Part shown: positions 32,458-48,190 of the stretch, piece by piece
Layout: every line of letters starts with the position of its first letter
Position numbering within the stretch: position 1 is the stretch's first letter
NCBI GenBank assembly: GCA_016936155.1
Contig: JAFGPO010000081.1
Location: 5,172 to 69,171, forward strand
Source of the DNA: a candidate division WOR-3 bacterium
Lineage (GTDB): Bacteria > Hydrothermota > Tepidihabitantia > SM23-42
Direction of reading: 5' to 3'
DNA: 64,000 nucleotides
Program-made: the position numbers and the translations under genes
Notes under the pieces: generated by a model
Seen by the model: the letters and a program-made list of their open reading frames with translations, nothing else
Told to the model about the DNA's origin: nothing
Databases searched by the model: none

Positions 32458-32475
32458 GATAGAATTATCCTGTAT

Positions 32476-32503
32476 AGTATATATACATTTCATCCTATGT
32501 CAA
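32476..32503 (-). promoter_or_regulatory. candidate sigma-70 promoter (TTGACA-N16-TATACT)
   Basis: The minus strand reads TTGACA (32503-32498), a 16-nt spacer, then TATACT (32481-32476). It lies about 18 nt upstream of the ATG at 32457. The hexamers are the same as in the promoter at 48163-48190. Confidence 0.4.
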
Positions 32504-33108: not shown

Positions 33109-33714
33109 TTAATAACCCCATACCTCGTTCAAATAAACACTTCGGCGGCAGGATGAACACAAGAAGCGCAGATGTTCGCTACGGTAGGGCGGCCTGTCAA
33201 CGCTCTTAGGAATCGCTTCCTCGCCGTATTCCTGGGAAAGCACCAGGAACAAATTCGGATTTGAATAGGCAAGTTCGCCAACCCGTTTTGCGATCCACAG
33301 AAGATGCGCACGAGTCGTAATGACTTCACCGCACCGCTCACAGAGAATCAATTCTTTTTCGATCGCGTTATCATATCCCTCATTTTTGATCTGCGCAAGA
33401 TCGTACTCCTGTGTATGAGCAATCCCCTGTTTCGTAGTGCAGTATGCGACACATTGACCGCAGTAAATACATCGCTCCTGAAAGTGGATCTCACGGCGTA
33501 TCCGTTTTACCTTATCATCAACCTGTGCACGTGCTTTTGCAGGACACACCTCGACACATGCGCCACAGAGAACGCACTTGTCAACGTTGAATTCAATCTT
33601 TCCTCTGAAGGTCGGGGCTGCAGGCGATGGTTTGAACGGGAATTTTGACGTGTAGGGCCCGAGAAATATTGCCTTGATCGCTTCGCCGAGCTCTCTTAAT
33701 TTAGGTTTTCGCAT
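33109..33714 (-). CDS. NuoI/MbhN-like 2x[4Fe-4S] hydrogenase subunit with an extra C-terminal Cys pair region
   Basis: CVLCGACVEVCP and CIYCGQCVAYC, plus C-terminal CERCGEV...CSSCRR. ATG at 33714 preceded by GAGGAG with a 5-nt spacer. Confidence 0.8.
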   Translation of the reverse strand: MRKPKLRELGEAIKAIFLGPYTSKFPFKPSPAAPTFRGKIEFNVDKCVLCGACVEVCPAKARAQVDDKVKRIRREIHFQERCIYCGQCVAYCTTKQGIAHTQEYDLAQIKNEGYDNAIEKELILCERCGEVITTRAHLLWIAKRVGELAYSNPNLFLVLSQEYGEEAIPKSVDRPPYRSEHLRFLCSSCRRSVYLNEVWGY

Positions 33715-33792
33715 GTAGTCTCCTCGTTGATTTGTCCGTGTGTTTTTCACATAGAACGACCTTGCCTGCGCCGCAATTCCGTGTTTCCTGCG

Positions 33793-34152
33793 TCATTTCG
33801 CTTCCTCCTTCTCGATCTGTTCTCCGCCCAGCTTATCTTCGCCGTACTTATCAATGACCGTGCCTTTCCACATCTTCCGTCCGAAATGCAGAGAACCTCT
33901 CATAAGAGCATGGGCAGCAACGGGACTCGTGAAAAGGAGAAACACGCCACAGATCAATGCCTTAATGCCCATTGGAGTGAATCCTTTGAGCAGAAAGATA
34001 CCGACCATGATACCGAAGGTACCCAATGTCACGCACTTCGTCGATGCCTGTAACCGGTTATAGACATCCGGGAAACGGACCAATCCTATCGCCCCCAGTA
34101 TATCGAATGCAATTCCGATCCAGATAATGATCCAACCAATCGGGCTAATCAT
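33793..34152 (-). CDS. Mrp/Mnh antiporter subunit G-like (MbhC-like)
   Basis: MISPIGWIIIWIGIAFDILGAIGLVRFPDVYNRLQASTK is typical of MnhG. ATG at 34152 preceded by AAGGAG with a 5-nt spacer. Confidence 0.85.
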   Translation of the reverse strand: MISPIGWIIIWIGIAFDILGAIGLVRFPDVYNRLQASTKCVTLGTFGIMVGIFLLKGFTPMGIKALICGVFLLFTSPVAAHALMRGSLHFGRKMWKGTVIDKYGEDKLGGEQIEKEEAK

Positions 34153-34402
34153 CGAGGCTCCTTTTTTCAAGGTACTTTGCTAAAGCGAGCGATCCGATGA
34201 AACTGAACAAGGTGAGTGTAATCGAGAGATCCATTAAAAATGCCTGCTCATAGAACAATGCCGTCAGTGCGGTGATCCCGACGAATAAGATACCCATAAT
34301 ATCTACGCCAACAGCACGATCGGCGATCGAAGGCCCCTGATAGATACGGTAAAGACACAAGAACCCGCCAATGGCCAGAATACTAAAGATTACACTACTC
34401 AT
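34145..34402 (-). CDS. Mrp/Mnh antiporter subunit F-like (MbhB-like)
   Basis: 85-aa three-helix hydrophobic protein in the MnhE-F-G order. ATGA overlap at 34399-34402. Confidence 0.75.
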   Translation of the reverse strand: MSSVIFSILAIGGFLCLYRIYQGPSIADRAVGVDIMGILFVGITALTALFYEQAFLMDLSITLTLFSFIGSLALAKYLEKRSLDD

Positions 34403-34884
34403 TCGAAGATCCTCCTTAGGTATTTTTCAAATGGCTGGGCTATAAGCTTGGACGCTTCATCGATATGCGCACTCTGTACCCAGATCCAGTGAATGTAGAG
34501 GTACTCGCCATCGATCTCACAGGTCATGGTTCCCGGCGTAAGGGTGATGGAATTCGCTAAAAAGATCTTCGCAATGTTCGACTTTAAGGTCGTTCTTATC
34601 CTCACAATCCCAGGCTTGATCGGTCTTTGAGGATGGAGGACCCGGTACGCAACATCGACATTCGCCCGGACCATATACCAGATGAATACCGGCACATAGA
34701 TGATAACCCATATGAGCCGATGGATCTGCAGAAAACGTGCGGGTTTATCCGTGAAATACCCGCCAAAGAGGATCGCGCTGATAGCGACGATGATAACACC
34801 GGCGATCAAGTGGTCGAGATGAACGCTCAATGTCAGGAGGATCCAGAAGGCAAATCCAACAATGAAGTAGATGATATATCGCAT
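34399..34884 (-). CDS. Mrp/Mnh antiporter subunit E-like (MbhA-like)
   Basis: 161 aa. Two N-terminal TM helices, then a soluble domain (RPIKPGIVRIRT...ITLTPGT), as in MnhE. GGAGG-type RBS. Confidence 0.75.
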   Translation of the reverse strand: MRYIIYFIVGFAFWILLTLSVHLDHLIAGVIIVAISAILFGGYFTDKPARFLQIHRLIWVIIYVPVFIWYMVRANVDVAYRVLHPQRPIKPGIVRIRTTLKSNIAKIFLANSITLTPGTMTCEIDGEYLYIHWIWVQSAHIDEASKLIAQPFEKYLRRIFE

Positions 34885-34893
34885 CGTTACCTC

Positions 34894-36396
34894 CTAAAAA
34901 GTCAACGGGATCGATCCGAATACCATGCTCGAGTATTCCAATCCCCGGAGAAGTGCTTGTGCTGCTGGTTCAATCAGGTAGGTCTCTATCTGCTGGAAGA
35001 ACAAGCCGACAATTACGAGCAATACAACGAGAAAGACCATCGCGATCCTCATGGTGAATGGTGCAGGTTTCGCTTCTATCTTCCCTTGTTTCATGTATAC
35101 CTTGGTCTCTATTTTGAGTAAATACCCCAGGGTAAGCGCGCTTAAAAGTATCGCAACGATCGCGATCCACAAAAATCCTGCCTGGATCGCCCCGATAATA
35201 ATGAAGAGTTTCGCAAAAAACCCGGCAAGCGGCGGTATACCGGCAAGTGATGAGAACCCGAATCGCCAGCTCCACGCTGTCGTTTGCATACGTTCACCAA
35301 GACCAGCAAGTTTATCCAGATCCCGCGTACCGGTGACATGGACGACCGATCCTGAGGTCAAAAAGAGCAATCCCTTTGCCAGAGCATGGGCAAGAATGAA
35401 AAAAAGTGCACCGGCAATGCCGTAGTAATTACCAACACCGAATCCAAGCATGATATACCCGATCTGCGAAACGCTTGAGAATCCAAGTAACCGCTTGTAG
35501 TCCTTCTGCCGAAGGGCGGTAAGCCCGGCGAACGTTATCGATAATAAACCCAGACCAAGGAGGATATCGAAAAACAACGGATCAGTAGTACGGGTCAATC
35601 CGAACACGTTGAAGACAAGCCGGGCAGTCGTGTAAATACCAAGGACTTTGATAAATGCACTGGAGAGCAAACTGGAGATCGGCGCCGGAGCCGATGGATG
35701 GGCATCCGGCAACCAGGAGTGAAATGGAACAAGCGCTGCCTTGATCGAAAATGCCAGGAGCAACATGCCCAGAATCATCCAGAAAAAAGTAGTTCCACGG
35801 ACCGCTTGAAGCGCCATAGAAATATCCGCAAGATTCAGTGTGCTCGTCTTTGCATAGATCAGGGCGATCGCAAGGAGAAAGGTCAATCCACCGATCTCGC
35901 CCATGACCATATATTTTATACTTGCCTCCAACTCGTCAGGACCGACACCGAAAGCCACAAGGGCATAGGAACTGATCGCTGCGATCTCAAGAAATACGAA
36001 CATGTTAAACAGATCGCCGGTGATGCTGATGCCCATCATACCCGCGGTCATGAGCATGAGCAGCGTGTAGAATTTCCATTCCCCGGTGTAACGCGCAATA
36101 TAGCGCAACGAAAAGAGACTGACCGCGAACATAATAATAGAAATGGTCAGCACCATGAGTGCGGAGAGGCTGTCAAATGCCATCACGATACCAAGGGGTG
36201 GCGCCCAGTTCCCCATTGCATAAACAGCAATCGGAACGCGCTGTGTGAATGCTACGCCATAGAGACCGAGCAAGAAGAGCAGGAACGACACTACCAGGGT
36301 CCATATCCATACGAGTGGTTTGTACAATTTCCCGATTATCGGGATCAGAAAAGCACTGACCAGCGGTATCACAAAATACAGCGGGATGAATGACAT
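34894..36396 (-). CDS. NuoM/MrpD-like proton-translocating antiporter subunit
   Basis: 500-aa polytopic protein. Motifs FHSWLPDAHPSAPAPISSLLS and SSVSQIGYIMLG are typical of the NuoL/M/N-MrpA/D family. Confidence 0.9.
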   Translation of the reverse strand: MSFIPLYFVIPLVSAFLIPIIGKLYKPLVWIWTLVVSFLLFLLGLYGVAFTQRVPIAVYAMGNWAPPLGIVMAFDSLSALMVLTISIIMFAVSLFSLRYIARYTGEWKFYTLLMLMTAGMMGISITGDLFNMFVFLEIAAISSYALVAFGVGPDELEASIKYMVMGEIGGLTFLLAIALIYAKTSTLNLADISMALQAVRGTTFFWMILGMLLLAFSIKAALVPFHSWLPDAHPSAPAPISSLLSSAFIKVLGIYTTARLVFNVFGLTRTTDPLFFDILLGLGLLSITFAGLTALRQKDYKRLLGFSSVSQIGYIMLGFGVGNYYGIAGALFFILAHALAKGLLFLTSGSVVHVTGTRDLDKLAGLGERMQTTAWSWRFGFSSLAGIPPLAGFFAKLFIIIGAIQAGFLWIAIVAILLSALTLGYLLKIETKVYMKQGKIEAKPAPFTMRIAMVFLVVLLVIVGLFFQQIETYLIEPAAQALLRGLEYSSMVFGSIPLTF

Positions 36397-36406
36397 TGCT
36401 GCCTCC

Positions 36407-36745
36407 TTACCCTTTCAATTTCCTTATTTCAGCGATATCGAACGTCTTATAGTGATTGTATATCCTGAGGATCACGGTCAACATGAGAGCGGTCGTACCC
36501 AGAGCAATGACGATAGCGGTCAGAACAAGCGCCTGCGGAATGGGATCGACGAAGTTGTGCACGGTATCGATCCGGGTAATGATCGGAGCAAGAGCACCTT
36601 TTTTAAATCCGATGAGCGCGAAAAAGAGGTTTACCGCGTATTCAATGAGTGCGAACCCGATCGCTATCTTGATAAGATTACGTTTGGTAATGATCGCGTA
36701 TAAACCGATCAGGAATAAAATGATACAGCTCAAGAATATGATCAT
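36407..36745 (-). CDS. NuoK/MnhC-like subunit
   Basis: 112 aa, three TM helices, position after MnhB. GAGGAG-type RBS. Confidence 0.8.
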   Translation of the reverse strand: MIIFLSCIILFLIGLYAIITKRNLIKIAIGFALIEYAVNLFFALIGFKKGALAPIITRIDTVHNFVDPIPQALVLTAIVIALGTTALMLTVILRIYNHYKTFDIAEIRKLKG

Positions 36746-36755
36746 AGCACTCTCC

Positions 36756-37190
36756 TCAATCCTCCGTCACATACTTCATAGCACCCAGCGCCAGGAAAAT
36801 GGAGAATAGCCCCGCTCCTACTTTTATACCGATCGCAATATTGCACAATGGAATGATCCCTGCACTGGCCAGATAGAGAGGAGTTCCTTTAGGCAGAAAA
36901 TTGACAAAGAACGTACCCGCAAGTACCAGCCCGAGCAGTGCGATACCGATAAAAAGCAATCCTCCGAGACTCTCGAATATCGACGCGCTGACCGTGGCTT
37001 TTTTCTCTTGTTTTGGCTTACTGCCGAATGCGAGATAGCGAAGGATAAGCGCACCAGCGATGATAACACCTCCGGCAAAACCGCCGCCTGGTGTCAGATG
37101 ACCGTGAACGATGATGTAAAGACCGTAGATGAAAATAAATCCGATAACGATATTCGTAATACCCTTAACGATTTCGCTCATTCCTTTCAC
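36756..37190 (-). CDS. MnhB-domain subunit (MbhF-like)
   Basis: The GHLTPGGGFAGGVIIAGALIL motif is characteristic of MnhB. GTG start with GGAGG 5 nt upstream and a GTGA overlap. Confidence 0.8.
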   Translation of the reverse strand: MKGMSEIVKGITNIVIGFIFIYGLYIIVHGHLTPGGGFAGGVIIAGALILRYLAFGSKPKQEKKATVSASIFESLGGLLFIGIALLGLVLAGTFFVNFLPKGTPLYLASAGIIPLCNIAIGIKVGAGLFSIFLALGAMKYVTED

Positions 37191-37720
37191 TTTTTCCTCC
37201 CTGTTGCACGCATCAGAGCAACAACACCGATGACCGAAGTAAAGAGAACGGTTGCTTCCCCCAGGGTATCCAGTGCCCGGAAATCGAGAATAACATCAGC
37301 AACAAGATTAGCACCGCCGGTTTGTGAAAGTCCCAGCCGTATATACTCGGATGCCACCTTCATGAGCGGTGCCCCGAACATCGGGATTTGACCCAACGTT
37401 CGGATCATTGCGATGAGAAAGAGCAGGGCGAACACCGAGAACGTGACAATGGCGAAAACTTGAGTACCTGCGAGTTTCTTTCCGATCGTATCATCAACAT
37501 GGGTCGTTCGTAGAATGACCGCGACGAATATCACGACAGTAAGAATCTCGACCACGATCTGCACGATCGCAAGATCAGGGGCTTGAAGGAAAATAAACAT
37601 TATCGCCACTGAAAATCCGACCGCACCGAGGGAAATAACCGCAGCAAGAAGATCCTTGATCTCGGTCGCGATGATCGCAGCTACGATCATGAACCCAAGG
37701 AACAGATAAAGTTCTATCAT
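37187..37720 (-). CDS. MbhD/MbhE-like fused membrane subunit (MrpA C-terminal / MnhB N-terminal type)
   Basis: 177-aa hydrophobic protein. The C-terminal block GGANLVADVILDFRALDTLGE is typical of this Mrp/Mbh segment. Confidence 0.7.
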   Translation of the reverse strand: MIELYLFLGFMIVAAIIATEIKDLLAAVISLGAVGFSVAIMFIFLQAPDLAIVQIVVEILTVVIFVAVILRTTHVDDTIGKKLAGTQVFAIVTFSVFALLFLIAMIRTLGQIPMFGAPLMKVASEYIRLGLSQTGGANLVADVILDFRALDTLGEATVLFTSVIGVVALMRATGRKK

Positions 37721-37732
37721 ATACTCCTCTCC

Positions 37733-39649
37733 TTAAAATACCAATATGATGATCAAGATGATACCGCCGACAAAGATCCACCCTACATAGTTATAGAGTT
37801 CACCCGTGTGGAGAGCGGACATGATCCCGCCTAGTGATTGTACCAGTTTCCCGATATACCGATAGAGGGCGACAATAATCTGATTGATCACATCCTTGAA
37901 TACTGACGCAATACCCTGGGCAGTCGCGCGAATATAATTATAAATATCAAAAGCACCACCTTCGCCGAACGCAACTGTTTTTTCAATAAGATCCAGAGAG
38001 CGCACTGAGGAATAGAAATCAGATCCGGTAATGCGTGCTGCTTCCTCATCCAGAATCTCCCCGCCTATGAAGATCGTGCCTTTTTTGGGCTTGAACGCTG
38101 TCCCCAACAAGAAAAGCAGGAGGCCGACCAAAAGACCTACGATAATAAGCAACGTGGCAAGACCTGGTGACCAAAAACCAATCTCCTGGATAGAAAATGG
38201 TAACGCAGGAAGCACCAGATGTTTAAGAGGAACTCCCATTGCGAATATCCCGAATACGATACACGCAACGGCAAGCACGAACGGTGGTGCGACCAACTCA
38301 AAACGGGCTTCACGGACTTTATTAAAGGTTTTTGGTCGCTCGCCAAGGAACATGGAATGCACCAATTTCAGATTGTACGCAAGTGTCAGAATACTGCCAA
38401 ACATCGCACAGATGAGGAAAATGAACCATAACGGCAGCTCGGACTGGAGATTAATGATTCCCTGGTATATCATCCACTTGGAATAAAATCCATTGAGTGG
38501 TGGTACACCTGAGATCGCGAGCGCGGCGATCGCGAATGCGAAAAAAGTAACCGGCATTTTCACGGCAAGCCCGCCCATATCATCAAGATTCGTTGTTTTG
38601 ATCCGGTTCTCAACTGCGCCGGTACCGAGGAAGAGTGTACTCTTATAGAGAACATTGTTAAGCATATGGAAAAAAGCTCCGGCAATCGCAACCGGCACCC
38701 CGGTCCCAAGACCGAGAATCATATATCCTGCTTGCGATACGGTCGAAAAAGCAAGAAGCCGTTGTGCATCTTTTTGCATGAGGGCCGCGAATGCCATGAC
38801 CACAATGGTAATAACGCCCACGATCATAAACAATAGTCGCAAGGACATGGATTGTGTGATATCAAAAATATAGAGCGCTACGCGTAGCAGCAGGTAAAAT
38901 CCGAGCAGTTTATCAAGACTCCCCGGGATAAAGGCAAGCGTGGAAGCCGGGACGGTCTTAGCGCTCTCCGGGATCCACGTGTGGAGGGGCATTGTTCCTA
39001 GTTTCGCTAATGCCCCGATCACGATCAGGACAAAAGAGGTGATAAGCCATGGATTATTCAGAGCAATACGGGGCTGTATGGGAAAATTGGCATTCCCCAT
39101 ATTTATCAGGAGTATCACGATACCCAACATGAGTACGTAATCCGCAATACCGATGATCGTGATCGCTTTCCGTGCCGCAAGAGAACTATCAGTCTTACCT
39201 ACGAGGAGCAATCCGTAAAGGGAAAAGACGAGCACGTTCCAGAAAATGAGCATGAACACAAGATTACCAGCCAGCACAGTGCCGTTCGCTGCGGACAGTG
39301 ATAGAGCGAGATATAGATAGTAAACCCGCTCGCGGGGCACCGTGGTCATCGCGCGCAGGGAGTAAAACCAGATCAGCAACGCGAGTACCGCATTAAAGAG
39401 CAATATCACGCCTGTCAGATTATCCAGGTAGAAACGGAATTCAATCCCGGAAATCGTCGCGAAGCTATGGATATCGGTCCCGGTCCGTGTAAAAATGAAG
39501 ATCTGGATCGCAAAGTAGAGAGAGGCGATGAAACCGACAAAATTCAGGAGTGTGCGCATCCGGTTGATAAGAAATCCAAGGAATCCCGCCGCGACTGGAA
39601 CGAATATGATCCAATAGTACAGTGAAATATCAAACAGTTTCATGATCAA
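37733..39649 (-). CDS. NuoL/MrpA-like antiporter subunit (MbhH-like)
   Basis: 638-aa polytopic protein. PLHTWIPESAKTVPASTLAF and FSTVSQAGYMILGLG motifs. ATGA overlap at 39646-39649. Confidence 0.9.
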   Translation of the reverse strand: MIMKLFDISLYYWIIFVPVAAGFLGFLINRMRTLLNFVGFIASLYFAIQIFIFTRTGTDIHSFATISGIEFRFYLDNLTGVILLFNAVLALLIWFYSLRAMTTVPRERVYYLYLALSLSAANGTVLAGNLVFMLIFWNVLVFSLYGLLLVGKTDSSLAARKAITIIGIADYVLMLGIVILLINMGNANFPIQPRIALNNPWLITSFVLIVIGALAKLGTMPLHTWIPESAKTVPASTLAFIPGSLDKLLGFYLLLRVALYIFDITQSMSLRLLFMIVGVITIVVMAFAALMQKDAQRLLAFSTVSQAGYMILGLGTGVPVAIAGAFFHMLNNVLYKSTLFLGTGAVENRIKTTNLDDMGGLAVKMPVTFFAFAIAALAISGVPPLNGFYSKWMIYQGIINLQSELPLWFIFLICAMFGSILTLAYNLKLVHSMFLGERPKTFNKVREARFELVAPPFVLAVACIVFGIFAMGVPLKHLVLPALPFSIQEIGFWSPGLATLLIIVGLLVGLLLFLLGTAFKPKKGTIFIGGEILDEEAARITGSDFYSSVRSLDLIEKTVAFGEGGAFDIYNYIRATAQGIASVFKDVINQIIVALYRYIGKLVQSLGGIMSALHTGELYNYVGWIFVGGIILIIILVF

Positions 39650-42032: not shown

Positions 42033-42040
42033 GGTTCCTC

Positions 42041-42517
42041 CTACGCTTTCTTCTTGGTCTTCAGTTTTTTATGCTCATCCGCATAATCGCGACACAGTGG
42101 GTGAAGATCTGATGGCCAGGATTCCGCGGTCAACAGTGGTTTGAGGTTTGGATGCCCGCTGAAATCCACCCCGAGCAGCTCATGCATCTCGCGCTCTATC
42201 CAGTTGGCAGCGGGCAGGAACGAGGTCAAGCTTTTTATCGTGAGATCGTCCTTGGGCACGACGGTCTTTATGTTATAGTACGTACCTGCTTCATCGAGCG
42301 TAAAATGATAAATGATCTCGATACCCTCGCGTGTATCGATGCCGGTTGCAATCGACAACCGACACCCTTTTCCCTTGAACAGGAATTTTGCGAGACTATG
42401 TACCTGATCTCGCGGCACTTTGATGTAGGTCCGGCGCGGAGCATGGATCTTTACGATCGCATCCGGGAATTTCTTCCCGACTTCCTCTAAAATAGCTTTG
42501 GAATACTCTTTCTTCAT
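42041..42517 (-). CDS. NuoC/MbhK-like subunit
   Basis: 158 aa. Motifs ANWIEREMHELLGVDFSGHP are typical of the 30-kDa subunit family. Confidence 0.85.
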   Translation of the reverse strand: MKKEYSKAILEEVGKKFPDAIVKIHAPRRTYIKVPRDQVHSLAKFLFKGKGCRLSIATGIDTREGIEIIYHFTLDEAGTYYNIKTVVPKDDLTIKSLTSFLPAANWIEREMHELLGVDFSGHPNLKPLLTAESWPSDLHPLCRDYADEHKKLKTKKKA

Positions 42518-42530
42518 TATTATAACCTCT

Positions 42531-42947
42531 TTATAACCTCTGTAGAGCCTTTACTACCCCCATGATGATCGCTTCGGGTTTTGGAGGGCATCCAGGGATG
42601 TAAACGTCAACCGGGATATACTTATCGTACGGACCGACAACATTGTAAGAAGATTCGAATATATGCGAGTGACATGTACAGGAGCCGACCCCGATCACAA
42701 GACACGGTTTTGGTGTTTGTTCATAAACCTCAAGAACCCGGGGCAGGCTTTTTCTGTTCAAAACGCCAGTGACAAGCAAAGCATCGGCATGCCGGGGTGA
42801 ACCGACGAGGACGATCCCGAAACGTTCAACATCCCAGCGCGGTGTTATTATATCGAGGATTTCAATATCACAGTTATTGCAGGAGGCAGCCGCTACATGG
42901 AACACCCACGGTGATTTCTTCAAACCCCATAGTTTCGCATTTGCCAT
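42531..42947 (-). CDS. NuoB/MbhJ-like hydrogenase small subunit
   Basis: 138 aa. Cluster ligands CNNCDIE, GVGSCTC and PGCPPKPE. Confidence 0.9.
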   Translation of the reverse strand: MANAKLWGLKKSPWVFHVAAASCNNCDIEILDIITPRWDVERFGIVLVGSPRHADALLVTGVLNRKSLPRVLEVYEQTPKPCLVIGVGSCTCHSHIFESSYNVVGPYDKYIPVDVYIPGCPPKPEAIIMGVVKALQRL

Positions 42948-42959
42948 CGGTTCTCTCCT

Positions 42960-43880
42960 TTACTTGCCGTAAAAGGCAAAGACCAGTCCAACGATCGATA
43001 TAAACCCTATGCCTAACCAGAAAAACTTCAATGCCTGGTCAATGCGCAAACGCGGATTCGTATTCTTTATGAGAACGATAAGTACGATGATCAACAGAAC
43101 TTTAAGTATCGCCCACCAATCTGCGATACCTCCCCATAGCAAAGAAACCAGGAACAGGGGCATTAAAAAAAACATCATTGCCCGTGTGACCTTATACAGC
43201 GCTAACGCAACACCTGAATATTCGATATATGGTCCGGACATTATTTCCTGTTCAGCTTCAGGGATATCGAAGGGTACGAAACTGAGTTTCGCCTGGGTCG
43301 CGAGGAGAACAACGACTGCGGCGATGACCCCGGATACCGAATACAGAAACGGTCCCTGCGTCTGCTGGATCAAAATAATCTCACCGAGCTTTATGCTTCC
43401 GCCACTCTTGATGATGACAATCGCTACTGCGATCAGAAAGGGCAATTCATAGGCGAAATACTGGGTCATTTCTCTGGATATCCCGACGCTGGCCAGAGGA
43501 TTCTTTGATGACGATCCCCCGAGGATAATACCCAGCGGCGGCAGGGCGAGCAAATAGACGACTACGATCAGATCACCAACGAACGTGGTGTGCGGTGCGA
43601 AATTCATCTTAAAGATCATCACCGCGAGAATGGTCATGGATATGACTCCCAGCAGGGGGCCAAATAAGAACAACAATTTTGAGCTACCTTCTGGTATTAT
43701 CGTCTCTTTGATGAGCAGTTTGAGAAAATCCGCATAGGGTTGAAACCATGGTGGACCGACACGCCAGTGTATACGTGCGGTGACCTTCCTGTCGACCCAG
43801 GTAATGAACATACCAATGACCGCGGTAAATAGAAAACCGGGGAATATGATGAAATTGAACAGCAGCTTTACGATGTTCAT
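42960..43880 (-). CDS. NuoH/MbhM/HycD-like membrane subunit
   Basis: 306-aa polytopic protein. DRKVTARIHWRVGP, REMTQYFAYELP and FDIPEAEQEI motifs of the NuoH family. ATGA overlap at 43877-43880. Confidence 0.9.
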   Translation of the reverse strand: MNIVKLLFNFIIFPGFLFTAVIGMFITWVDRKVTARIHWRVGPPWFQPYADFLKLLIKETIIPEGSSKLLFLFGPLLGVISMTILAVMIFKMNFAPHTTFVGDLIVVVYLLALPPLGIILGGSSSKNPLASVGISREMTQYFAYELPFLIAVAIVIIKSGGSIKLGEIILIQQTQGPFLYSVSGVIAAVVVLLATQAKLSFVPFDIPEAEQEIMSGPYIEYSGVALALYKVTRAMMFFLMPLFLVSLLWGGIADWWAILKVLLIIVLIVLIKNTNPRLRIDQALKFFWLGIGFISIVGLVFAFYGK

Positions 43881-44347
43881 GATGATCTCCTGTAGAATGA
43901 ATGCTTTGAAACGAAGCGCATACTGATCTCACGCTGTTTTATCTCATCTTCACCAAGGAACTGTAGGGCACCCGATGAACACGCGGCAACGCACCTTGGA
44001 CCTTCATCACGATCCTTGCACAAATTGCATTTTTGGGAAATGTGCCGGACCAGCGGTGCATCGATGACGCCAAATGGACAGGCGAATGCACAGCTCTGGC
44101 AACCGATACATATATATGCAGACCGTGTGACCAAACCCGTTTCTTCATCCCTTGTTATTGCGTCAACCGGGCATGCCGCTGCACACAGAGGATCCTTACA
44201 GTGCCGGCACGCAAGGGGTAAATAAGCGGTCTGTGCGATATTACCGTGCCGGATACGCGATTCTCCCTTGAATGCGGCTTTACACGCAGCCTCACACGAC
44301 CGACACCCACAACATAGATCAAGATCCAATACTATCCTTTTTGGCAT
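43877..44347 (-). CDS. HycB/HydN-like 4x[4Fe-4S] ferredoxin
   Basis: 156 aa. CCGCRSCEAAC, CRHCKDPLCAAACP, CIGCQSCAFACP, CNLCKDRDEGPRCVAAC. Confidence 0.85.
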   Translation of the reverse strand: MPKRIVLDLDLCCGCRSCEAACKAAFKGESRIRHGNIAQTAYLPLACRHCKDPLCAAACPVDAITRDEETGLVTRSAYICIGCQSCAFACPFGVIDAPLVRHISQKCNLCKDRDEGPRCVAACSSGALQFLGEDEIKQREISMRFVSKHSFYRRSS

Positions 44348-45903
44348 ATCTCCACCTCGGTCGGTACTAAACTGACGTAATGATCCACGATATCATAGTT
44401 GAAAAGTGCTCGCACATGAGGCTCTTCGACCGGTATCGCAACGATCCCTGGATCAACATCAGCAGTAACCGCCGCGTCTATATCGATCGCGCCCTGTTTC
44501 GATTTCACGGTTATGATATCATGTGCTTTGATCCCTAATTCCTGCGCATCATGAGGATTGATCTTAAGCGATCCATGATCAAACAGCCCGAGAAAATGAT
44601 ACGCGGTCTTTTCCCCGAACAGTGTAAGAGCTTTCTTCTTTTTAGTGGTTTTCTGATCGATCAGCCGTTGCGCTTGTGCAACGATATCGATCGCGGGATC
44701 AGGTTCCGCGAGCGCGGTCTGGGATGGATCGCTTTTTTTGATGCCTGCGAGGAATGAAACCACATCCTGCGAACCACTGGGTGGCGCAATGACGCCGGAA
44801 AGATCCCGGGGACCGAACAATGTATTGATCGTACCCTTTTTCTCCAGATTGAGTGCTCCTGGGATCATCGTATAACCATTCCACTTCAGGGGAGAAGTCG
44901 CAAAAATGGGTACTTTTTTCATATCGCGGACGATCTGAGGGTAATAAAAGGGAAACAGTTCTCCAAAATTTATGATCTGTTTAACCGTGCCTTTCTTCAC
45001 GTCTTCCATGATAGCCCCGAAACATCGATTACCCTCGAATCCTTGGAATTCCACAAAAGGAGCGACCTTCGCGCTATAAAAGGAGCTGAAACGTTTTAAT
45101 CCTTCAACAAATAGCAGCGGGTCGTAGGTCCGTGCCGAAGGTAAACATACCGCGATCAACCCCTGCTTCGCGTTCTTCATGAGACCGCTGATCTCTGCGA
45201 TACGATCCCGGGATATACCGGTATGTTCTGATACATCAATGCCCTTGATATCTTCATGTGCGAGGGCGAAGAACAAAAGGGATTCGGTTCCGGGCATAAC
45301 TTTTATAAAATCACTTGCAAAACTGCTTGTATGGGTATGTATTGAATCGATCACGATCAAACGGTGCTTTCTATGAGCGCGTTTCCACTCTATGAACGCT
45401 TTGCTGCACATCGGGGTGTGGCTGAAAATATCGCCGATAATGCAGACCGTATCAGCGCTGTTCACGTCACTGATCTGGAATGTCCCGGAAGCGCATCTCT
45501 TCAGAAGCGATTCGGATTCCAGGTACGCGGATGCAACACGATCGATCCCAACCGCGCGGCAGAATCCAATGATCGCTTGATATTCCTCGATCGTGATGTT
45601 GCGGTCGAACGTAATCGCCATCTGCTCTGGTTTTTCGATGATTCGCTTTAGATCTTTGAGCATCTTATTTGCATCATACGGAGCATTCTGCTTAAAAGGT
45701 ACTGATAAACGCTGCTTATGGTTCAAGTACATAGCCGCGGCACTACCCCTGGGGCAAAGCCGACCCCCACTGCTCCCTTCCTTCATATACTCGATACCAG
45801 CGATGCCAAAATCGTTGAACACAATGCCGAATTCGCACCCGTAGTTGCAGAATGGACACACCGTCCTTGTGACGGTCGTAAAAGTGTGGTCAATGGTCTT
45901 CAT
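44332..45903 (-). CDS. short molybdopterin-oxidoreductase (MopB)-family protein, formate-dehydrogenase-H-like but apparently without the Sec/Cys-His active site
   Basis: 523 aa. N-terminal FS0 motif CPFCNYGC...LCPRG. Rossmann-like IIGDIFSHTP...LIVIDSI...MPGTESL. C-terminal beta-barrel-like INPHDAQELGIKAHDIITVKSKQG. By-eye alignment to E. coli FdhH puts AYLESE where CARVUHGPS lies. Confidence 0.75.
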   Translation of the reverse strand: MKTIDHTFTTVTRTVCPFCNYGCEFGIVFNDFGIAGIEYMKEGSSGGRLCPRGSAAAMYLNHKQRLSVPFKQNAPYDANKMLKDLKRIIEKPEQMAITFDRNITIEEYQAIIGFCRAVGIDRVASAYLESESLLKRCASGTFQISDVNSADTVCIIGDIFSHTPMCSKAFIEWKRAHRKHRLIVIDSIHTHTSSFASDFIKVMPGTESLLFFALAHEDIKGIDVSEHTGISRDRIAEISGLMKNAKQGLIAVCLPSARTYDPLLFVEGLKRFSSFYSAKVAPFVEFQGFEGNRCFGAIMEDVKKGTVKQIINFGELFPFYYPQIVRDMKKVPIFATSPLKWNGYTMIPGALNLEKKGTINTLFGPRDLSGVIAPPSGSQDVVSFLAGIKKSDPSQTALAEPDPAIDIVAQAQRLIDQKTTKKKKALTLFGEKTAYHFLGLFDHGSLKINPHDAQELGIKAHDIITVKSKQGAIDIDAAVTADVDPGIVAIPVEEPHVRALFNYDIVDHYVSLVPTEVEICQKG

Positions 45904-46715
45904 ACGAAGGGCTCCTCGATATGCTTAACATCATCCCATGTGAGTACCGGTCCATCTTTACACACATAGAACTTCCCGACACGACAGTGATTGCACTTGC
46001 CAATACCGCAGGACATGTTGCTTTCCATGGACAAATAGATGTTTTTGTGCGTGAAACCAGCTTCCACAAGCCGTTGTGTTACGAATTTCATCATGATCGG
46101 AGGACCACAGACAACTGTTGGAGCATCTGCCACATCAACCGGGATCTCGTCGAGAATCACCGTAACAACACCGACGCGACCTTTCCATGTATCATCGCCA
46201 ACATCGACAGTGAAGAGCATATCCACGCCGTTGACCTTTTGCCATTCTGGAATCTGATATTTATACGCAATATCCTGTGGGGTCCGGGCTCCATAACGGA
46301 TGTATATTTTTTTATAATCCTTGATATCATGCAATAAGGCAAGAAAAAGTGAACGTAAGGGAGCAAACCCAACGCCGCCACCGACAATGAACACCTCTTT
46401 GCCCTTGAATTCCTTTAAAGGATATGGTTTACCGAACGGTCCCCGGACCCCGATCGTGTCGCCCTCTTTCAGTCGAAAGAGCTCGCTTGTTACACGACCT
46501 ACTTTCATGATCGTGAACTCAAGGATATCTGCATACGGGGAAGAGGAGGGCGTAAACGGCGCTTCACCAACACCGGGAACAGTTACTTCAGCGAATTGAC
46601 CGGCCAGGAAATCAAAGGGCTTGCCATCAAGGACGAATGTCGTGATCGTCGGTGTCTCCGGTATTATTTTTTTAATCTTTATGGGTATCGCATAGTAAGG
46701 ATTTACAGCTTCCAT
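45900..46715 (-). CDS. FAD/NAD(P)-binding oxidoreductase with C-terminal [2Fe-2S] motif (sulfhydrogenase-gamma/FlxA-like)
   Basis: AGQFAEVTV and FIVGGGVGFAP. C-terminal CGIGKCNHCRVG. ATG at 46715 preceded by GGGAG. ATGA overlap with the downstream gene at 45900-45903. Paralog of 3203..4042. Confidence 0.85.
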   Translation of the reverse strand: MEAVNPYYAIPIKIKKIIPETPTITTFVLDGKPFDFLAGQFAEVTVPGVGEAPFTPSSSPYADILEFTIMKVGRVTSELFRLKEGDTIGVRGPFGKPYPLKEFKGKEVFIVGGGVGFAPLRSLFLALLHDIKDYKKIYIRYGARTPQDIAYKYQIPEWQKVNGVDMLFTVDVGDDTWKGRVGVVTVILDEIPVDVADAPTVVCGPPIMMKFVTQRLVEAGFTHKNIYLSMESNMSCGIGKCNHCRVGKFYVCKDGPVLTWDDVKHIEEPFV

Positions 46716-47713
46716 AATATCTCCCTGATATCGATCTTTCCTGAACAACCACGGAAACAACGTCCGCATCCGGAACACGAGAAAAAACCCTCATTTTCTT
46801 TGAAATAGTTGAATTTGCACTGAAATCGGTTCCAAAACCGCTGATCGAGTTCACTGCGTGGATTGGCGCCGCCGCCGACCCGGGCATAGGCAGCATAGTA
46901 GCACGCATCCCACGTTCGCACACGCTCGTACTCTTTCCCCTTTGGGTAGTCGCTGAGCAAGAAACAGTAACAGGTAGGGCATGCATGCAAACATGCATGG
47001 CACTCAACACAGTCTTTGCGAGCCTCATGCTGCAGGTCTGGATCGGCATTCGCAACACGCGTTGCAAGATCCTCGTGGAATGGCTTCTTATTGATCGACG
47101 CAAGTCTCTTTTCCGCAGCAGCGCGTGCCTGATCGCGCTCTTTTTGATCTTCTCTCGTACACTCGATCAAAAACCTGCTGTGTTCATTGATGAGTTGCTC
47201 GCCTGCCTTTGTAAAGGCTTCAAACACATACCCCCGGTCAACGGGTGTCATGTTGATATCACAGATCGTCTCACCATAGGGACGCAATCCAACAAGATTA
47301 CAAAAACAACAGTCTTCCGGCTCTGGGCAGTCTGCTGACAGCAGTACTATACTCTCCCTTCTCTGTTTGTATCCAGGGTCAACGGGATCGCTCTTCAAGA
47401 AAACCCGATCATACACATCTATACCCCGGAGATCACAGTTTTTGACACCAATGATGATTTGCTTCTCCACGTTCAAATGTAAATCCTTTGGAAATTTGGC
47501 GACAACATCCCGGCTCGGGAACAGAAAGTGTTTCATGTTCTCTGCGGTCCGTATTGAAGAAAACACTGGTTCAAATGGCTTTCCCGGTTCGAATCTGACA
47601 AAATGAGCCTTTGATCCTTCTTTCTCAGGATAGAACACTGAACCAGTCTTGGATAATTGTGTTACAAAGGATAGTAGATTATCTGAGGGTAGAAGATAGA
47701 GTTTCATAGACAT
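46703..47713 (-). CDS. iron-sulfur protein (sulfhydrogenase-beta/FlxB/AsrA-like)
   Basis: 336 aa. CVECHACLHACPTCYCF and CSGCGRCFRGC. Paralog of 4039..5073. Confidence 0.8.
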   Translation of the reverse strand: MSMKLYLLPSDNLLSFVTQLSKTGSVFYPEKEGSKAHFVRFEPGKPFEPVFSSIRTAENMKHFLFPSRDVVAKFPKDLHLNVEKQIIIGVKNCDLRGIDVYDRVFLKSDPVDPGYKQRRESIVLLSADCPEPEDCCFCNLVGLRPYGETICDINMTPVDRGYVFEAFTKAGEQLINEHSRFLIECTREDQKERDQARAAAEKRLASINKKPFHEDLATRVANADPDLQHEARKDCVECHACLHACPTCYCFLLSDYPKGKEYERVRTWDACYYAAYARVGGGANPRSELDQRFWNRFQCKFNYFKENEGFFSCSGCGRCFRGCSGKIDIREILWKL

Positions 47714-48155
47714 TTATTATATCGATTTCTTTCTCACTGTCAAGAAATTCTGACCACCGGATCACTTTCTGCGCTAACAATCGCACCGGATCGCTGAAAT
47801 GCTCATAGGATTGCGGCGCAGCGCCCAGGAGCCATACCTCCGCGCCACACTGATCCTTGATGTACTCGTACATGGAACTGAAGGGAAGAACGTGAGTGGT
47901 CAGGGACAAGGGCTGACTTTTGAGTATTTCCTCATTCCTCAACAATACTGTTTGAGTAGGGATGTTTTCTACAGTATCAAGGAGGAGAACCAGGTCCGGT
48001 GCCATCCTGATGATCGTGTTAAGGTAGTTTTCGATATGCATTCCGCAATCGAGAGTCTTCATTTTCTTGAGAGTCCCTAGATGCTGGACGACATACGGAC
48101 CAAATCCGTCATCTCCACGTTCGATATTACCCATACCGCAGAGAAGTACTGTCAT
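47679..48155 (-). CDS. [NiFe] hydrogenase maturation endopeptidase (HycI/HyaD family)
   Basis: 158 aa. The N-terminal LLCGMGNIERGDDGFGPYV motif is typical of this family. Confidence 0.85.
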   Translation of the reverse strand: MTVLLCGMGNIERGDDGFGPYVVQHLGTLKKMKTLDCGMHIENYLNTIIRMAPDLVLLLDTVENIPTQTVLLRNEEILKSQPLSLTTHVLPFSSMYEYIKDQCGAEVWLLGAAPQSYEHFSDPVRLLAQKVIRWSEFLDSEKEIDIINVYETLSSTLR

Positions 48156-48162
48156 GTTTCGT

Positions 48163-48190
48163 AGTATATTGTTCCCTGTCCGATTGTCAA
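48163..48190 (-). promoter_or_regulatory. candidate sigma-70 promoter (TTGACA-N16-TATACT) for the hydrogenase operon
   Basis: The minus strand reads TTGACA (48190-48185), a 16-nt spacer, then TATACT (48168-48163). Only 7 nt (acgaaac) separate the -10 from the ATG at 48155, and no SD is present. Confidence 0.45.

Follow-up and report, generated by a model that had tools for sequence, protein, structure and literature searches.

A Mrp-rich group 4 [NiFe] hydrogenase operon with a sulfhydrogenase-type beta/gamma pair and a short MopB-like protein in candidate division WOR-3

A 2019 in silico report described the module set of this operon in Saganbacteria and called it "enigmatic" (PMC6349859). 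Group 4b clusters with an equal module set were described in silico in 2026 by Takano et al., who noted that formate dehydrogenase (Fdh)-like proteins without Cys/Sec co-occur with sulfhydrogenase I (SHI) beta/gamma genes (PMC13582414). Their AlphaFold models of related clusters have a cluster network with three branches, one ending in the large subunit, one in SHI-gamma and one in the Fdh-like protein, and they favour bifurcation or confurcation (PMC13582414). In Pyrococcus furiosus SHI, NADPH oxidation is the job of the beta/gamma part (as cited in PMC13582414).

The WOR-3 operon is a Mrp-rich variant of this recognised class, which is so far biochemically uncharacterised in the literature. 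The original prediction knew of no characterised example. This holds at the biochemical level, where no enzyme has been purified or assayed, but not in silico, where the architecture was described in 2019 and 2026.

Operon layout and conservation

The window, a 64,000-nucleotide stretch of DNA from a candidate division WOR-3 bacterium, has 19 co-directional minus-strand genes running 48155→33109. An ORF check found each predicted ORF in place, and the predicted family names agree with the Pfam and NCBIfam matches for 19/19. The E-values are well past chance level, and on these matches the subunit identities are well supported. In order of transcription, with the flanking features, the locus contains:

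48245..48613, plus strand: small cupin, 122 aa, divergent from the operon (Cupin_2 5.8e-11)
48163..48190, minus strand: promoter-like site TTGACA-16-TATACT, ending 7 nt before the protease ATG (consensus match only)
47679..48155, minus strand: HycI-type [NiFe] hydrogenase maturation endopeptidase, 158 aa (TIGR00072 4.4e-17; TIGR00142 hycI 5e-14)
47716..47743, minus strand: perfect sigma-70 consensus TTGACA-16-TATAAT within the 3' end of the protease gene (consensus match only)
46703..47713, minus strand: beta subunit, SHI-beta/ShyB/AsrA-like iron-sulfur protein, 334-336 aa (Fer4_22 4.7e-24)
45900..46778, minus strand: gamma subunit, SHI-gamma/AsrB/PyrK-like flavoprotein (NAD_binding_1 1.3e-16, DHODB_Fe-S_bind 6e-9)
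44332..45903, minus strand: short MopB-like protein, 523 aa (Molybdop_Fe4S4 and Molydop_binding, no other Pfam domains)
43877..44347, minus strand: HycB/CooF-like ferredoxin (Fer4_11 2e-19)
42960..43880, minus strand: NuoH/HycD/MbhM-like membrane subunit (PF00146 7e-66)
42531..42947, minus strand: hydrogenase small subunit, NuoB/HycG/MbhJ-like (PF01058 2e-27)
42041..42517, minus strand: NuoC/MbhK-like subunit (PF00329 4.7e-26)
40857..42032, minus strand: [NiFe] hydrogenase large subunit (NuoD-like), group 4, 391 aa (PF00346 1.5e-67, PF00374 2.4e-14)
39646..40899, minus strand: antiporter-like subunit 1, short N-terminus (PF00361 1.6e-45; MbhH 6cfw_H 116 bits)
37733..39649, minus strand: antiporter-like subunit 2, NuoL/MbsH'-like, 638 aa (PF00361 7.7e-50)
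37187..37720, minus strand: MbhD+MbhE fusion, equal to the C-terminal part of MrpA (NuoJ-like) (PF13244 5e-18, PF20501 1.5e-9)
36756..37190, minus strand: MnhB/MrpB-like (PF04039 1.8e-26)
36407..36745, minus strand: MnhC/MrpC/NuoK-like (PF00420 8e-26)
34894..36396, minus strand: antiporter-like subunit 3, MrpD/MbhH-like, 500 aa (PF00361 8.9e-65; MbhH 6cfw_H 272 bits, full length)
34399..34884, minus strand: MnhE/MrpE-like (PF01899 1.2e-40)
34145..34402, minus strand: MnhF/MrpF-like (PF04066 3.7e-14)
33793..34170, minus strand: MnhG/MrpG-like (PF03334 2.4e-23)
33109..33750, minus strand: HycF/NuoI/MbhN-like 2x[4Fe-4S] ferredoxin (NCBIfam FHL iron-sulfur subunit 3e-22, HyfH 5e-21)

Homologous gene calls suggest revised starts for beta (47707), gamma (46715, 271 aa), the first antiporter-like subunit (40860, 404 aa) and the NuoI-like subunit (33714, 201 aa). 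The genes were predicted to be mostly overlapping; with the revised starts this is the case for about 10 of the 18 junctions (4-29 nt), and the others have gaps of at most 13 nt, except for about 78 nt before the NuoI-like gene. Overlaps of 4-16 nt run through beta, gamma, MopB, HycB and NuoH, which are syntenic in about 45 loci. The input genes are translationally coupled, and separate transcription of beta and gamma, which would have counted against the prediction, is not borne out. The perfect sigma-70 consensus ends 3-8 nt ahead of the two candidate ATGs of beta. The protease gene start has no Shine-Dalgarno spacing after the upstream promoter-like site, and its transcript looks leaderless from the sequence.

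About 40 species genomes of WOR-3, Stahlbacteria and TA06 share this gene order. The order beta-gamma-MopB-HycB-NuoH-B-C-D holds across 41 species genomes, and also for distant relatives whose membrane arms differ. The input module (SHI-type beta/gamma, short MopB and HycB) is also found in Latescibacteria and unassigned metagenome contigs, where the adjoining membrane arm has one, two or three antiporter-like subunits. The four input genes were never apart from the hydrogenase core in about 50 loci examined, and the HycF/NuoI-like gene is the final operon gene in every variant examined. The operon is confirmed as real and widely conserved. The protease gene is present in most WOR-3 loci, is absent from L003 and L004, and is missing or detached in some relatives. 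A cupin occupies the equivalent position in most related loci, minimal variants included; its product may have an accessory or regulatory part, and its membership is uncertain.

Hydrogenase core and membrane arm

The large subunit has both Ni-Fe motifs, RICGICS and DPCYCC, aligned with those of MbhL (6cfw_L, 285 bits) and HycE (7z0s_E, 247 bits), which agrees with the prediction of intact Ni-Fe ligands. It carries a HycE-like C-terminal extension of 33 residues past DPCYCCTER and is 76-97% identical across relatives. The hydrogenase is of HydDB group 4, most probably 4b. In the small subunit, the pattern CxxC...C...CPP would provide the Cys ligands for one proximal [4Fe-4S] cluster. The maturation protease had no Pfam match at E<=1e-3.

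Both ferredoxin-like subunits are nearest to their FHL/HDCR counterparts, which connect FdhF with the hydrogenase. The HycB-like protein has four Cys motifs (16 Cys), which predict four [4Fe-4S] clusters; among solved structures it is closest to HDCR HycB3 (7qv7_A, 2.8e-22) and to HycB of E. coli (7z0s_B, 1.1e-20). The HycF/NuoI-like protein matches HycF (7z0s_F, 1.3e-14) and MbhN (5.5e-14) and has an additional C-terminal CxxC...CxxC.

The membrane arm has the full Mrp set and three Proton_antipo_M proteins, as predicted. Antiporter-like subunit 1 has the TM5 Glu and the TM7, TM8 and TM12 Lys residues. Subunit 2 has Asn in place of the TM5 Glu and a long C-terminal extension; it covers NuoL models end to end, and its best solved relative is in MBS (6u8y_X, 2.4e-45).

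The input module

The predicted sulfhydrogenase-type pair is homologous over its full length to the SHI beta and gamma subunits of P. furiosus. The beta subunit aligns with SHI beta (PDB 9nez_B, 2.4e-32) at every Cys motif and has NCBIfam matches to ShyB (8.5e-42), HydB (1.2e-35) and AsrA (1.6e-26). The gamma subunit has FAD and NAD(P)H domains with a [2Fe-2S] motif at the C-terminus. It matches AsrB (NCBIfam, 1.5e-62) and aligns with SHI gamma (9nez_C, 3.3e-49) end to end, keeping the nucleotide motif GxGxxP and CGIGKC..C...C. A second beta/gamma pair is found elsewhere in the window within a Hdr/Mvh-like cluster, so the pair serves as a portable NAD(P)H module.

The MopB-like protein is 100% identical to NCBI JXB22_05125. 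Its invariant residues include R52 and C16, C19, C23 and C50 of a [4Fe-4S] cluster (FS0). Y127-L128 occupy the Sec-His position of formate dehydrogenase. The Sec/Cys-His dyad is replaced by Tyr-Leu/Phe in 30/30 WOR-3 family members, and the Tyr is retained in Latescibacteria homologues at identities as low as 32%. Of 128 representatives of the wider family, 71 have Tyr, Phe or Trp in this column and just 5 have Cys-His. The protein has lost the Fdh catalytic dyad, which agrees with the prediction of a non-catalytic-looking MopB protein. Since Phe is unable to ligate metal, the substitution argues for a filled-in former active site. MopB is also the least conserved subunit (31-53% identity vs 76-91% for the large subunit), so a role as scaffold or wire fits.

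Proposed function and alternatives

The operon products, apart from the maturation protease, would form one 18-subunit membrane complex. Its core would be a formate-hydrogenlyase/Mbh-type energy-converting [NiFe] hydrogenase, in which MopB, formerly the formate dehydrogenase partner, now serves as a non-catalytic adaptor and retains its [4Fe-4S] cluster. The sulfhydrogenase-type beta/gamma pair would be a gain, with FAD, [2Fe-2S] and several [4Fe-4S] clusters exchanging electrons with NAD(P)H. Electrons would pass from NAD(P)H to the FAD and [2Fe-2S] of gamma, the [4Fe-4S] clusters of beta, possibly the MopB cluster, the four HycB clusters, the two HycF-like clusters, the proximal cluster of the small subunit and finally [NiFe], where H+ and H2 are interconverted. 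This may be coupled to H+/Na+ movement through NuoH, the three antiporter-like subunits and the MrpB/C/E/F/G set. At high H2, NAD(P)+ would be reduced by H2 and ions exported; in a fermenting cell, NAD(P)H may be disposed of as H2 with the help of the ion gradient or when the H2 pressure is very low.

We give about an even chance to this energy-converting hydrogenase, which would link NAD(P)H/NAD(P)+ to H+/H2 and ion translocation with MopB as an iron-sulfur adaptor. The compositional part of the original prediction stands; its ion-translocating NAD(P)H:H+ oxidoreductase is what we infer as the plausible and preferred function. The proposed likeness to complex I is functional only: NuoE/F are absent from the operon, the MopB-like protein does not have the NuoG N-terminal domains, and the NuoD homologue has remained a hydrogenase. 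Under standard conditions, NAD(P)+ reduction by H2 comes to about -18 kJ/mol, and the direction from NAD(P)H to H2 is endergonic. An arm with three antiporter-like subunits seems too large for so small a span.

The main rival is a three-terminal enzyme, proposed by Takano et al. 2026 (PMC13582414), in which a MopB active site serves a third substrate and H+/H2, NAD(P)+/NAD(P)H and a third couple meet, possibly by bifurcation or confurcation. The segment around the former active site shows no decay: between WOR-3 and Latescibacteria (32% identity), Y127, E131, R52, D186 and the LEKxGT motif do not vary, so the segment is under selection, and MopB may hold a cofactor or third-substrate site. The AF2 model (pLDDT 92) keeps a compact, complete MopB fold, with Foldseek TMq of 0.75-0.79 to catalytic FdhF, Nap and FDHs (0.79 for FdhF in FHL, 7z0t_A) and 0.65-0.70 to NuoG/Nqo3. 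The branched network in the published models also fits. However, the residue at the ligand position is not one of those known to bind the metal in MopB proteins (Sec, Cys, Ser, Asp), and in the wider family it is often Phe or Trp, which do not bind metal. Compared with F420-FDH FdhA, the protein lacks about 140 residues of the canonical fold (between profile positions 283-335 and 401-445), the PF00384 molybdopterin domain was not detected by a Pfam search, and MopB evolves fastest of all subunits. The window has no Moco riboswitch, biosynthesis gene or transporter gene, and to our knowledge the SHI-gamma flavin is not among known bifurcation sites. On balance, the three-terminal enzyme is rather unlikely.

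Ferredoxin could also be the main donor, by analogy with Mbh, where the span from ferredoxin to H2 is well matched to ion pumping. The complex would then produce H2 in an Mbh/MBS-like manner, with beta/gamma-MopB-HycB as a side branch that brings the chain of clusters into equilibrium with NAD(P)H, making it a combined hydrogenase and ferredoxin:NAD(P)+ oxidoreductase. The nearest matches of the large and MrpD-like subunits are P. furiosus MbhL and MbhH, and that of the second antiporter-like subunit is MBS subunit H'. WOR-3 genomes are reported as fermentative, with Rnf and ferredoxin-linked enzymes (PMC12542636). We consider ferredoxin-driven H2 production rather improbable, since the four additional peripheral subunits are strictly kept with the core in every variant, the operon has no ferredoxin gene, and HycB in FHL caps the HycF-type subunit at the docking place of the Mbh ferredoxin (PMC9474812).

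An ordinary formate hydrogenlyase, with MopB as an unusual yet active formate dehydrogenase and beta/gamma as an extra NAD(P)+ outlet, is very unlikely. Formate dehydrogenases, including FdhF in FHL, are the best sequence and fold matches of MopB, HycB-, HycF- and HycI-type partners are in the operon, and in automated annotation MopB relatives are called formate dehydrogenase or formylmethanofuran dehydrogenase B. However, the catalytic dyad is replaced throughout the family, and MopB reaches just 97 bits on the NCBIfam Fdh-alpha model (cutoff 666) and is about 190 residues shorter than FdhH. There is no formate channel gene within the window, and such proteins could not be placed among formate dehydrogenases in two independent papers (one being PMC6349859).

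Two merely co-transcribed enzymes, a soluble beta/gamma/MopB/HycB oxidoreductase and an independent Mbh-like hydrogenase, would suit the portable beta/gamma pair and the loose attachment of E. coli FdhF to FHL, from which it is lost on anaerobic purification (PMC9474812), but are very unlikely given the 4-nt overlap of HycB and NuoH, the linkage of the input genes to the core throughout the roughly 50 loci, and the last place always held by the HycF-type gene, the would-be HycB docking partner, whatever the membrane arm.

Operon content and hydrogenase core

The operon has 19 genes on the minus strand, running from 48155 to 33109. The ORF listing contained all of the co-directional genes named in the original prediction, and each product matched the family assigned to it there when scanned against Pfam and NCBIfam.

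Genes of the operon, all on the minus strand
Gene 1: HycI-type maturation protease (TIGR00072, 4e-17)
Gene 2, 46703-47713: beta, a ShyB/HydB/AsrA-like iron-sulfur protein
Gene 3, 45900-46778: gamma, an AsrB/HydG/PyrK-like flavoprotein
Gene 4, 44332-45903: MopB, a 523-aa MopB-like protein whose only detected domains are Fe4S4 and Molydop_binding
Gene 5: HycB-like ferredoxin with four motifs
Genes 6, 7 and 8: NuoH, NuoB and NuoC
Gene 9: NuoD-type [NiFe] large subunit
Gene 10, 39646-40899: short antiporter-like protein (404 aa from its likely start at 40860)
Gene 11, 37733-39649: NuoL-like antiporter-like protein (638 aa)
Genes 12, 13 and 14: MbhD+MbhE fusion, MnhB and MnhC
Gene 15, 34894-36396: MrpD/MbhH-like protein (500 aa)
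Genes 16, 17 and 18: MnhE, MnhF and MnhG
Gene 19, 33109-33750: HycF/NuoI-like ferredoxin

With starts taken as in homologous gene calls, about 10 of the 18 gene junctions overlap; the others have gaps of at most 13 nt, except for about 78 nt before gene 19. MopB is identical in sequence to NCBI JXB22_05125 (candidate division WOR-3 bacterium). An exact-sequence look-up of the large subunit gave a single match, on a 9-kb contig that did not extend the context.

The large subunit contains both Ni-Fe motifs (ERICGICSDSH and DPCYCCTER), which align with MbhL, and keeps all four Ni-Fe cysteines; the CGIC motif is of the Cys type. A 33-residue tail follows DPCYCCTER, and in HycE a C-terminal tail of this arrangement is the substrate of HycI-type protease cleavage. 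The Pfam and NCBIfam scans found the rest of the group 4 set co-encoded: a NuoB-like subunit with one proximal cluster, NuoC/H/I-like subunits and antiporter-like subunits. Both the motifs and the subunit set are thus those of a group 4 (energy-converting) [NiFe] hydrogenase. The subgroup is less clear-cut. The nearest solved large subunits are MbhL of group 4d (285 bits) and HycE of group 4a (247 bits), and similar clusters were assigned by Takano et al. 2026 to group 4b, which they find paraphyletic (PMC13582414). A catalytic formate dehydrogenase (FDH) or CODH serving as a 4b-type electron input was not found in the operon by Pfam or NCBIfam, MopB having no Sec/Cys-His.

The operon encodes a full MrpA-G set. 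MnhB, MnhC, MrpD, MnhE, MnhF and MnhG match above the Pfam cutoffs, and the counterpart of MrpA is the NuoL-like protein together with the MbhD/E fusion. The 500-aa antiporter-like protein is homologous to MbhH over its full length (272 bits). The 638-aa protein aligns with the whole of the NuoL models, its closest relative being the second antiporter-like subunit in MBS (6u8y_X). The 404-aa protein is a relative that is short at the N-terminus. Lysines assigned to TM7, TM8 and TM12 are kept in all three, and the TM5 glutamate is present in two of them and is Asn in the NuoL-like one; the helix positions are those that we take from known family motifs. At about residue 145, the NuoL/MbsH'-like subunit (37733-39649, minus strand) has FWN where MbsH' has SWE.

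The input module and its MopB-like protein

The beta and gamma proteins align end to end with those of Pyrococcus furiosus sulfhydrogenase I (SHI; 9nez_B, 2e-32 and 9nez_C, 3e-49, respectively) and keep all Cys motifs, the GxGxxP nucleotide motif and the C-terminal [2Fe-2S] motif. In gamma, the residues that follow strand two of the nucleotide domain are GART; the NADPH-using SHI gamma has TAR there, a hint that gamma may also use NADPH. The usual partners of these proteins, the group 3b alpha/delta hydrogenase and the AsrC sirohaem reductase, were not found in the operon by Pfam or NCBIfam.

The HycB-like protein has 16 Cys in four classical motifs and is closest to HDCR HycB3 and E. coli HycB (7z0s_B, 1.1e-20). 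The best NCBIfam match of the gene 19 product is the formate hydrogenlyase (FHL) iron-sulfur subunit (3e-22). The operon therefore encodes both members of the FHL-type linking pair, the HycB-type four-cluster ferredoxin and the HycF-type ferredoxin. In the FHL structure the chain runs from the FdhF cluster through four HycB, two HycF and the HycG clusters to the [NiFe] site (PMC9474812), and all of these subunit types are represented in the operon. The HycF/NuoI-like protein (33109-33750, minus strand) also has an extra CxxC...CxxC at residues ~147-200, after its two ferredoxin motifs. E. coli HycF has a Cys-quartet metal site at the FdhF interface (PMC9474812), and by analogy the extra motif may be its counterpart.

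MopB had been predicted to be non-catalytic, and the alignments agree with this. Across 30 aligned family members, which share 36-78% identity with the window protein, the [4Fe-4S] ligands C16, C19, C23 and C50 are kept, as is R52. In the PDB profile search, which aligned F420-dependent and Hdr-linked formate dehydrogenases, the catalytic Sec/Cys-His dyad of FDH is replaced in MopB by an invariant Y127-L/F128, and the GPS following the dyad by EPE. Relative to FdhA, the canonical fold lacks about 140 residues, which fall between profile positions 283-335 and 401-445. MopB scores 97 bits on TIGR01591, against a cutoff of 666. Y127, E131, R52, D186 and LEKxGT are still invariant when Latescibacteria and other distant sequences (32% identity) are included. 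We read these substitutions as indicating that MopB is probably not a formate dehydrogenase.

An exhaustive profile search of 1.84 billion representatives placed 89 clusters in the MopB family at E<=1e-30 and 512 at E<=1e-10. The Sec/Cys column was readable in 128 of the best 150 representatives: 46 have Tyr there, 21 Phe, 4 Trp and only 5 Cys-His, and these five are longer, canonical enzymes. Two distant members, P0281 (with a YLPPE motif) and P0244, occur in the same operon type. The AlphaFold2 model of MopB (pLDDT 92) is similar to FdhF as it sits in E. coli FHL (TMq 0.79) and to Nap and further FDHs, and also to the cofactor-less NuoG/Nqo3 (TMq 0.65-0.70). Since FdhF, Nap and NuoG all match well, fold comparison was rejected as a test of whether MopB is catalytic.

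Among the scanned ORFs of the window there was no FocA-type formate channel or other formate-linked gene and no Moco or hyp gene, and no Rfam family, the Moco riboswitch included, reached its gathering threshold across the whole window. The supplementary tables of the 2025 WOR-3 pangenome have no entry for moaA, K03639, molybdopterin, K22516 or mbhL. In the Latescibacteria locus L047, a gene for a 199-aa Oxidored_molyb protein (sulfite-oxidase-type Moco domain; 15835-16434) directly follows the operon; none was seen at this place in the WOR-3 loci.

Conservation and relation to known systems

The operon type is conserved in related genomes. A synteny search, as the original prediction had proposed, gave 41 loci with one genome per species, all from WOR-3, "Stahlbacteria" or TA06. 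When the 19 window proteins were compared with every fetched locus by tblastn, the gene order was the same wherever the contig was long enough. The apparent truncation of L016, L018, L034 and L043 is due to runs of 100 N in the scaffolds and was rejected as gene loss.

Identity of proteins in related loci to the window protein
Small subunit (NuoB-like): 78-93%
Large subunit: 76-91%
Gamma: 67-80%
HycB: 62-83%
Beta: 40-67%
Protease: 36-49%
MopB: 31-53%

The constant part of these loci is beta-gamma-MopB-HycB-NuoH-B-C-D, and the membrane arm varies around it, so the Mrp content is an exchangeable module. The window operon is the largest Mrp version among the loci seen.

Membrane arms found with the constant part
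One antiporter-like protein, then the NuoI-like gene: L003, L004 and L048
Mbh-like, one antiporter-like protein with MbhDE, MnhB, C, E, F and G: L046 (WOR-3), L047 (Latescibacteria) and L050
Two antiporter-like proteins: L049
Three antiporter-like proteins: the window type, the commonest in WOR-3

The original prediction knew of no characterised example, but the architecture itself has appeared in print, and two in-silico reports weaken the case for its complete novelty. In Saganbacteria RX5A, Matheus Carnevali et al. 2019 found a group 4 hydrogenase region that they called "enigmatic"; its closest relatives were in Zixibacteria and Omnitrophica, and it contained Mrp-like subunits, cooF, asrA, asrB and a molybdopterin oxidoreductase not identifiable as FDH (PMC6349859). 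The likeness is to the region as described; that report concerns other phyla, has no residue-level analysis and proposes only an Mbh-like function. Takano et al. 2026 found that about half of the Fdh subunits in the group 4b clusters analysed have no Cys/Sec ligand and that such Fdh-like proteins co-occur with SHI-beta/gamma homologues (PMC13582414). Their clusters share with the operon the group 4 hydrogenase, the Fdh-like protein without a Mo-ligating Cys/Sec, SHI-beta/gamma and the ferredoxin subunits. However, the typical ones have HyfE/HyfC-like and antiporter subunits instead of the full MrpB/C/E/F/G set, and the focus is on Sec-containing large subunits, whereas that of the operon is Cys-type (CGIC). 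A Lost City study reported an unplaceable FDH-like sequence in a WOR-3 MAG. Apart from this sequence, WOR-3 lies outside the coverage of these studies and is not mentioned by Takano et al.; none of the three contains biochemistry or covers the variation of the membrane arm. A literature search on WOR-3 hydrogenases with Mrp found nothing, and the 2025 WOR-3 pangenome paper does not discuss the complex.

All markers of the class described in 2019 and 2026 are present and syntenic in the operon, which therefore belongs to a class recognised in silico, as an Mrp-rich variant with three antiporter-like subunits. The class is known in WOR-3, TA06 and Latescibacteria and, from the literature, in Saganbacteria, Zixibacteria and Omnitrophica; there are related group 4b clusters in several other phyla. 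It takes in at least 89 sequence clusters of MopB. Automated annotation names the subunits formate dehydrogenase, formylmethanofuran dehydrogenase B, NADH-quinone oxidoreductase subunit D and anaerobic sulfite reductase, and such names can distort metabolic reconstructions of sediment and subsurface communities.

Several characterised systems share parts of this architecture. The group 4b Fdh2-Mfh2-Mnh2 complex of T. onnurineus has the same three modules, an input, a membrane [NiFe] hydrogenase and an Mrp Na+/H+ module (PMC8965080), but it is archaeal, has no beta/gamma, and takes its input from a catalytic FDH whose active site is Cys-His-Arg. E. coli FHL (FdhF-HycBCDEFG; 7Z0S/7Z0T) has the same peripheral-arm logic (MopB-HycB-HycF-HycG-HycE), and both systems have a HycI-type protease and a cleavable C-terminal extension. 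FHL differs in having a Sec/Mo enzyme, FdhF, a membrane arm of just HycC and HycD, and no NAD(P)H module. P. furiosus MBH and MBS (6CFW, 6U8Y) are the best solved relatives of the large, MrpD-like and NuoL-like subunits and have the same Mrp-derived small subunits, but in these complexes ferredoxin donates directly at the NuoI-like subunit, and MopB, HycB, beta and gamma are absent. MBH has one antiporter-like subunit and MBS two, compared with three in the operon. SHI (group 3b; 9NEZ) and AsrAB contain full-length beta/gamma homologues with conserved cofactor motifs, but there the pair works with a soluble group 3b hydrogenase or with a sirohaem sulfite reductase, and not with a membrane-bound group 4 enzyme. 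Two other leads were rejected. The NAD(P) subunit of the NADP-dependent FDH of T. onnurineus (Fdh3) is NfnB/GltD-like and not HydG-like, so Fdh3 is no precedent for MopB with beta/gamma, and the enzymes reported in an Antarctic-lake "dark matter" paper are all ordinary ones of groups 4g/4e and 3b.

The proposed mimicry of complex I stands for the overall logic. Both combine a nucleotide-oxidising flavoprotein and an iron-sulfur wire with a MopB relic, presumably cofactor-less like the C-terminal part of NuoG, and both have the NuoB/C/D/H/I core along with three antiporter-like subunits and the NuoL-type extension. It does not extend to the components. The NuoE/NuoF FMN module is absent from the operon (the window has NuoE/F-like genes elsewhere, in a different cluster), MopB has no NuoG N-terminal cluster domains, and the operon has MrpE/F/G subunits, unlike complex I. 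The NuoD homologue keeps its Ni-Fe ligands and therefore makes or uses H2 and does not reduce quinone. The likeness is one of converging function and does not make the operon a complex I.

Proposed function and neighbouring genes

The best-supported model is a single complex linking NAD(P)H/NAD(P)+ to H+/H2 and to ion movement, and the most economical reading is the function first proposed for the operon. Electrons would pass between gamma, beta, possibly the MopB cluster, HycB, the HycF-like protein and the small subunit; we infer the substrates, the direction and the coupling. With standard potentials of -320 and -414 mV, transfer from H2 to NAD(P)+ yields about 18 kJ/mol, and at about 10 Pa H2 the couple is estimated to be near equilibrium. 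The complex could therefore pump ions in H2-rich settings or, in a fermenter, use the gradient to drive H2 formation from NAD(P)H. In full, the reading is of a working ion-motive-force-coupled NAD(P)H:H+ (H2:NAD(P)+) oxidoreductase that acquired its flavoprotein and cofactor-less MopB independently, like NuoEFG, and we hold it tentatively, as a possible account. The formation of H2 from NAD(P)H in anaerobes is otherwise accounted for by confurcating [FeFe] hydrogenases, or by Rnf together with a ferredoxin hydrogenase. If the function holds, the complex would be the first group 4 hydrogenase in which the NAD(P)H/H2 pair is directly coupled to an ion gradient. Fermenters could dump NAD(P)H as H2 at an ion cost, and hydrogenotrophs could gain NAD(P)H from H2 while pumping ions. 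It would also be a living, independent parallel to the step in complex I evolution at which a nucleotide-oxidising module joined a hydrogenase/Mrp core and a dead molybdoenzyme was retained as a scaffold. The swappable arms, whose antiporter-like subunits number one, two or three, would then be traces of how a complex-I-like pump was built up step by step.

The first alternative is that a third substrate reacts at the MopB site. Bifurcation or confurcation with NADPH and a third substrate has been proposed by Takano et al. (PMC13582414), and the conserved neighbouring residues make a residual binding site in MopB possible. That Phe or Trp so often occupies the ligand position, and that the protein evolves fast, points to a former active site that has been filled in; we consider a third substrate unlikely. 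An Mbh driven by ferredoxin, with NAD(P)H on a side branch, seems more doubtful still. Homologues of MbhA-H and MbhJ-N are all present and MbhI was not identified among the operon genes, but four additional peripheral subunits (beta, gamma, MopB and HycB) are conserved upstream, and an input by ferredoxin alone, as in the Mbh type (group 4d), would not account for them. A true FHL, for which the linking pair would be suited, is very improbable given Y127-L/F128 at the dyad position of MopB and no formate channel among the scanned window ORFs. It is equally improbable that the operon encodes two separate enzymes: beta, gamma, MopB, HycB and NuoH overlap by 4-16 nt, so the input genes are not a separate unit, and the separate transcription of beta and gamma that had been considered finds no support here.

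Two putative promoters are strong sigma-70-like matches to the consensus only. One (48163-48190, minus strand) lies 7 nt upstream of the protease ATG. The other, a perfect consensus (47716-47743, minus strand), lies inside the protease gene, 3-8 nt upstream of two candidate beta ATGs. These matches leave no room for a ribosome-binding site, which suggests that the protease and beta may be translated from leaderless mRNAs, and they also suggest that the protease may be expressed separately. No convincing terminator was found after gene 19.

A small Cupin_2 protein (48245-48613, plus strand) is encoded divergently from the operon. Its position is kept in most related loci, including those with a minimal membrane arm. 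Further along the plus strand (49567-52987) are ORFs of 246 and 911 aa with no Pfam match, and ORFs of 178 and 905 aa, also with no Pfam match, occupy the same place beside the cupin in the WOR-3 chromosome CP070686.1 (L002).

The window also has a second, paralogous beta/gamma pair (3203-5073, minus strand). Its beta (4039-5073) shares 29% identity with the beta of the operon, and its gamma (3203-4042) shares 42% with the operon gamma. The pair is part of a redox cluster (3203-16670, minus strand) that also contains two MvhD/FlpD genes, genes for two HdrA-like proteins (1029 and 1197 aa), a NuoF-like gene and a NuoE-like fusion. This cluster looks like a flavin-based bifurcating Hdr/Mvh-type complex using the same NAD(P)H module. 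Another region (22913-28760, minus strand) encodes a 1484-aa fusion of HdrA-like, GltD-like (Fer4_20 and Pyr_redox_2) and ferredoxin domains, followed by CCG-domain (HdrB-like) and Fer4_8 (HdrC-like) proteins.

Several sigma-54 activators and sensor kinases are encoded downstream of the operon (17076-22418 and 28757-32493, minus strand). In L049, the distantly related locus with two antiporter-like proteins, a kinase, a sigma-54 activator and a response regulator (679-4028) lie directly upstream of the same operon type, a hint that the operon type may be under sigma-54-dependent control in some lineages.
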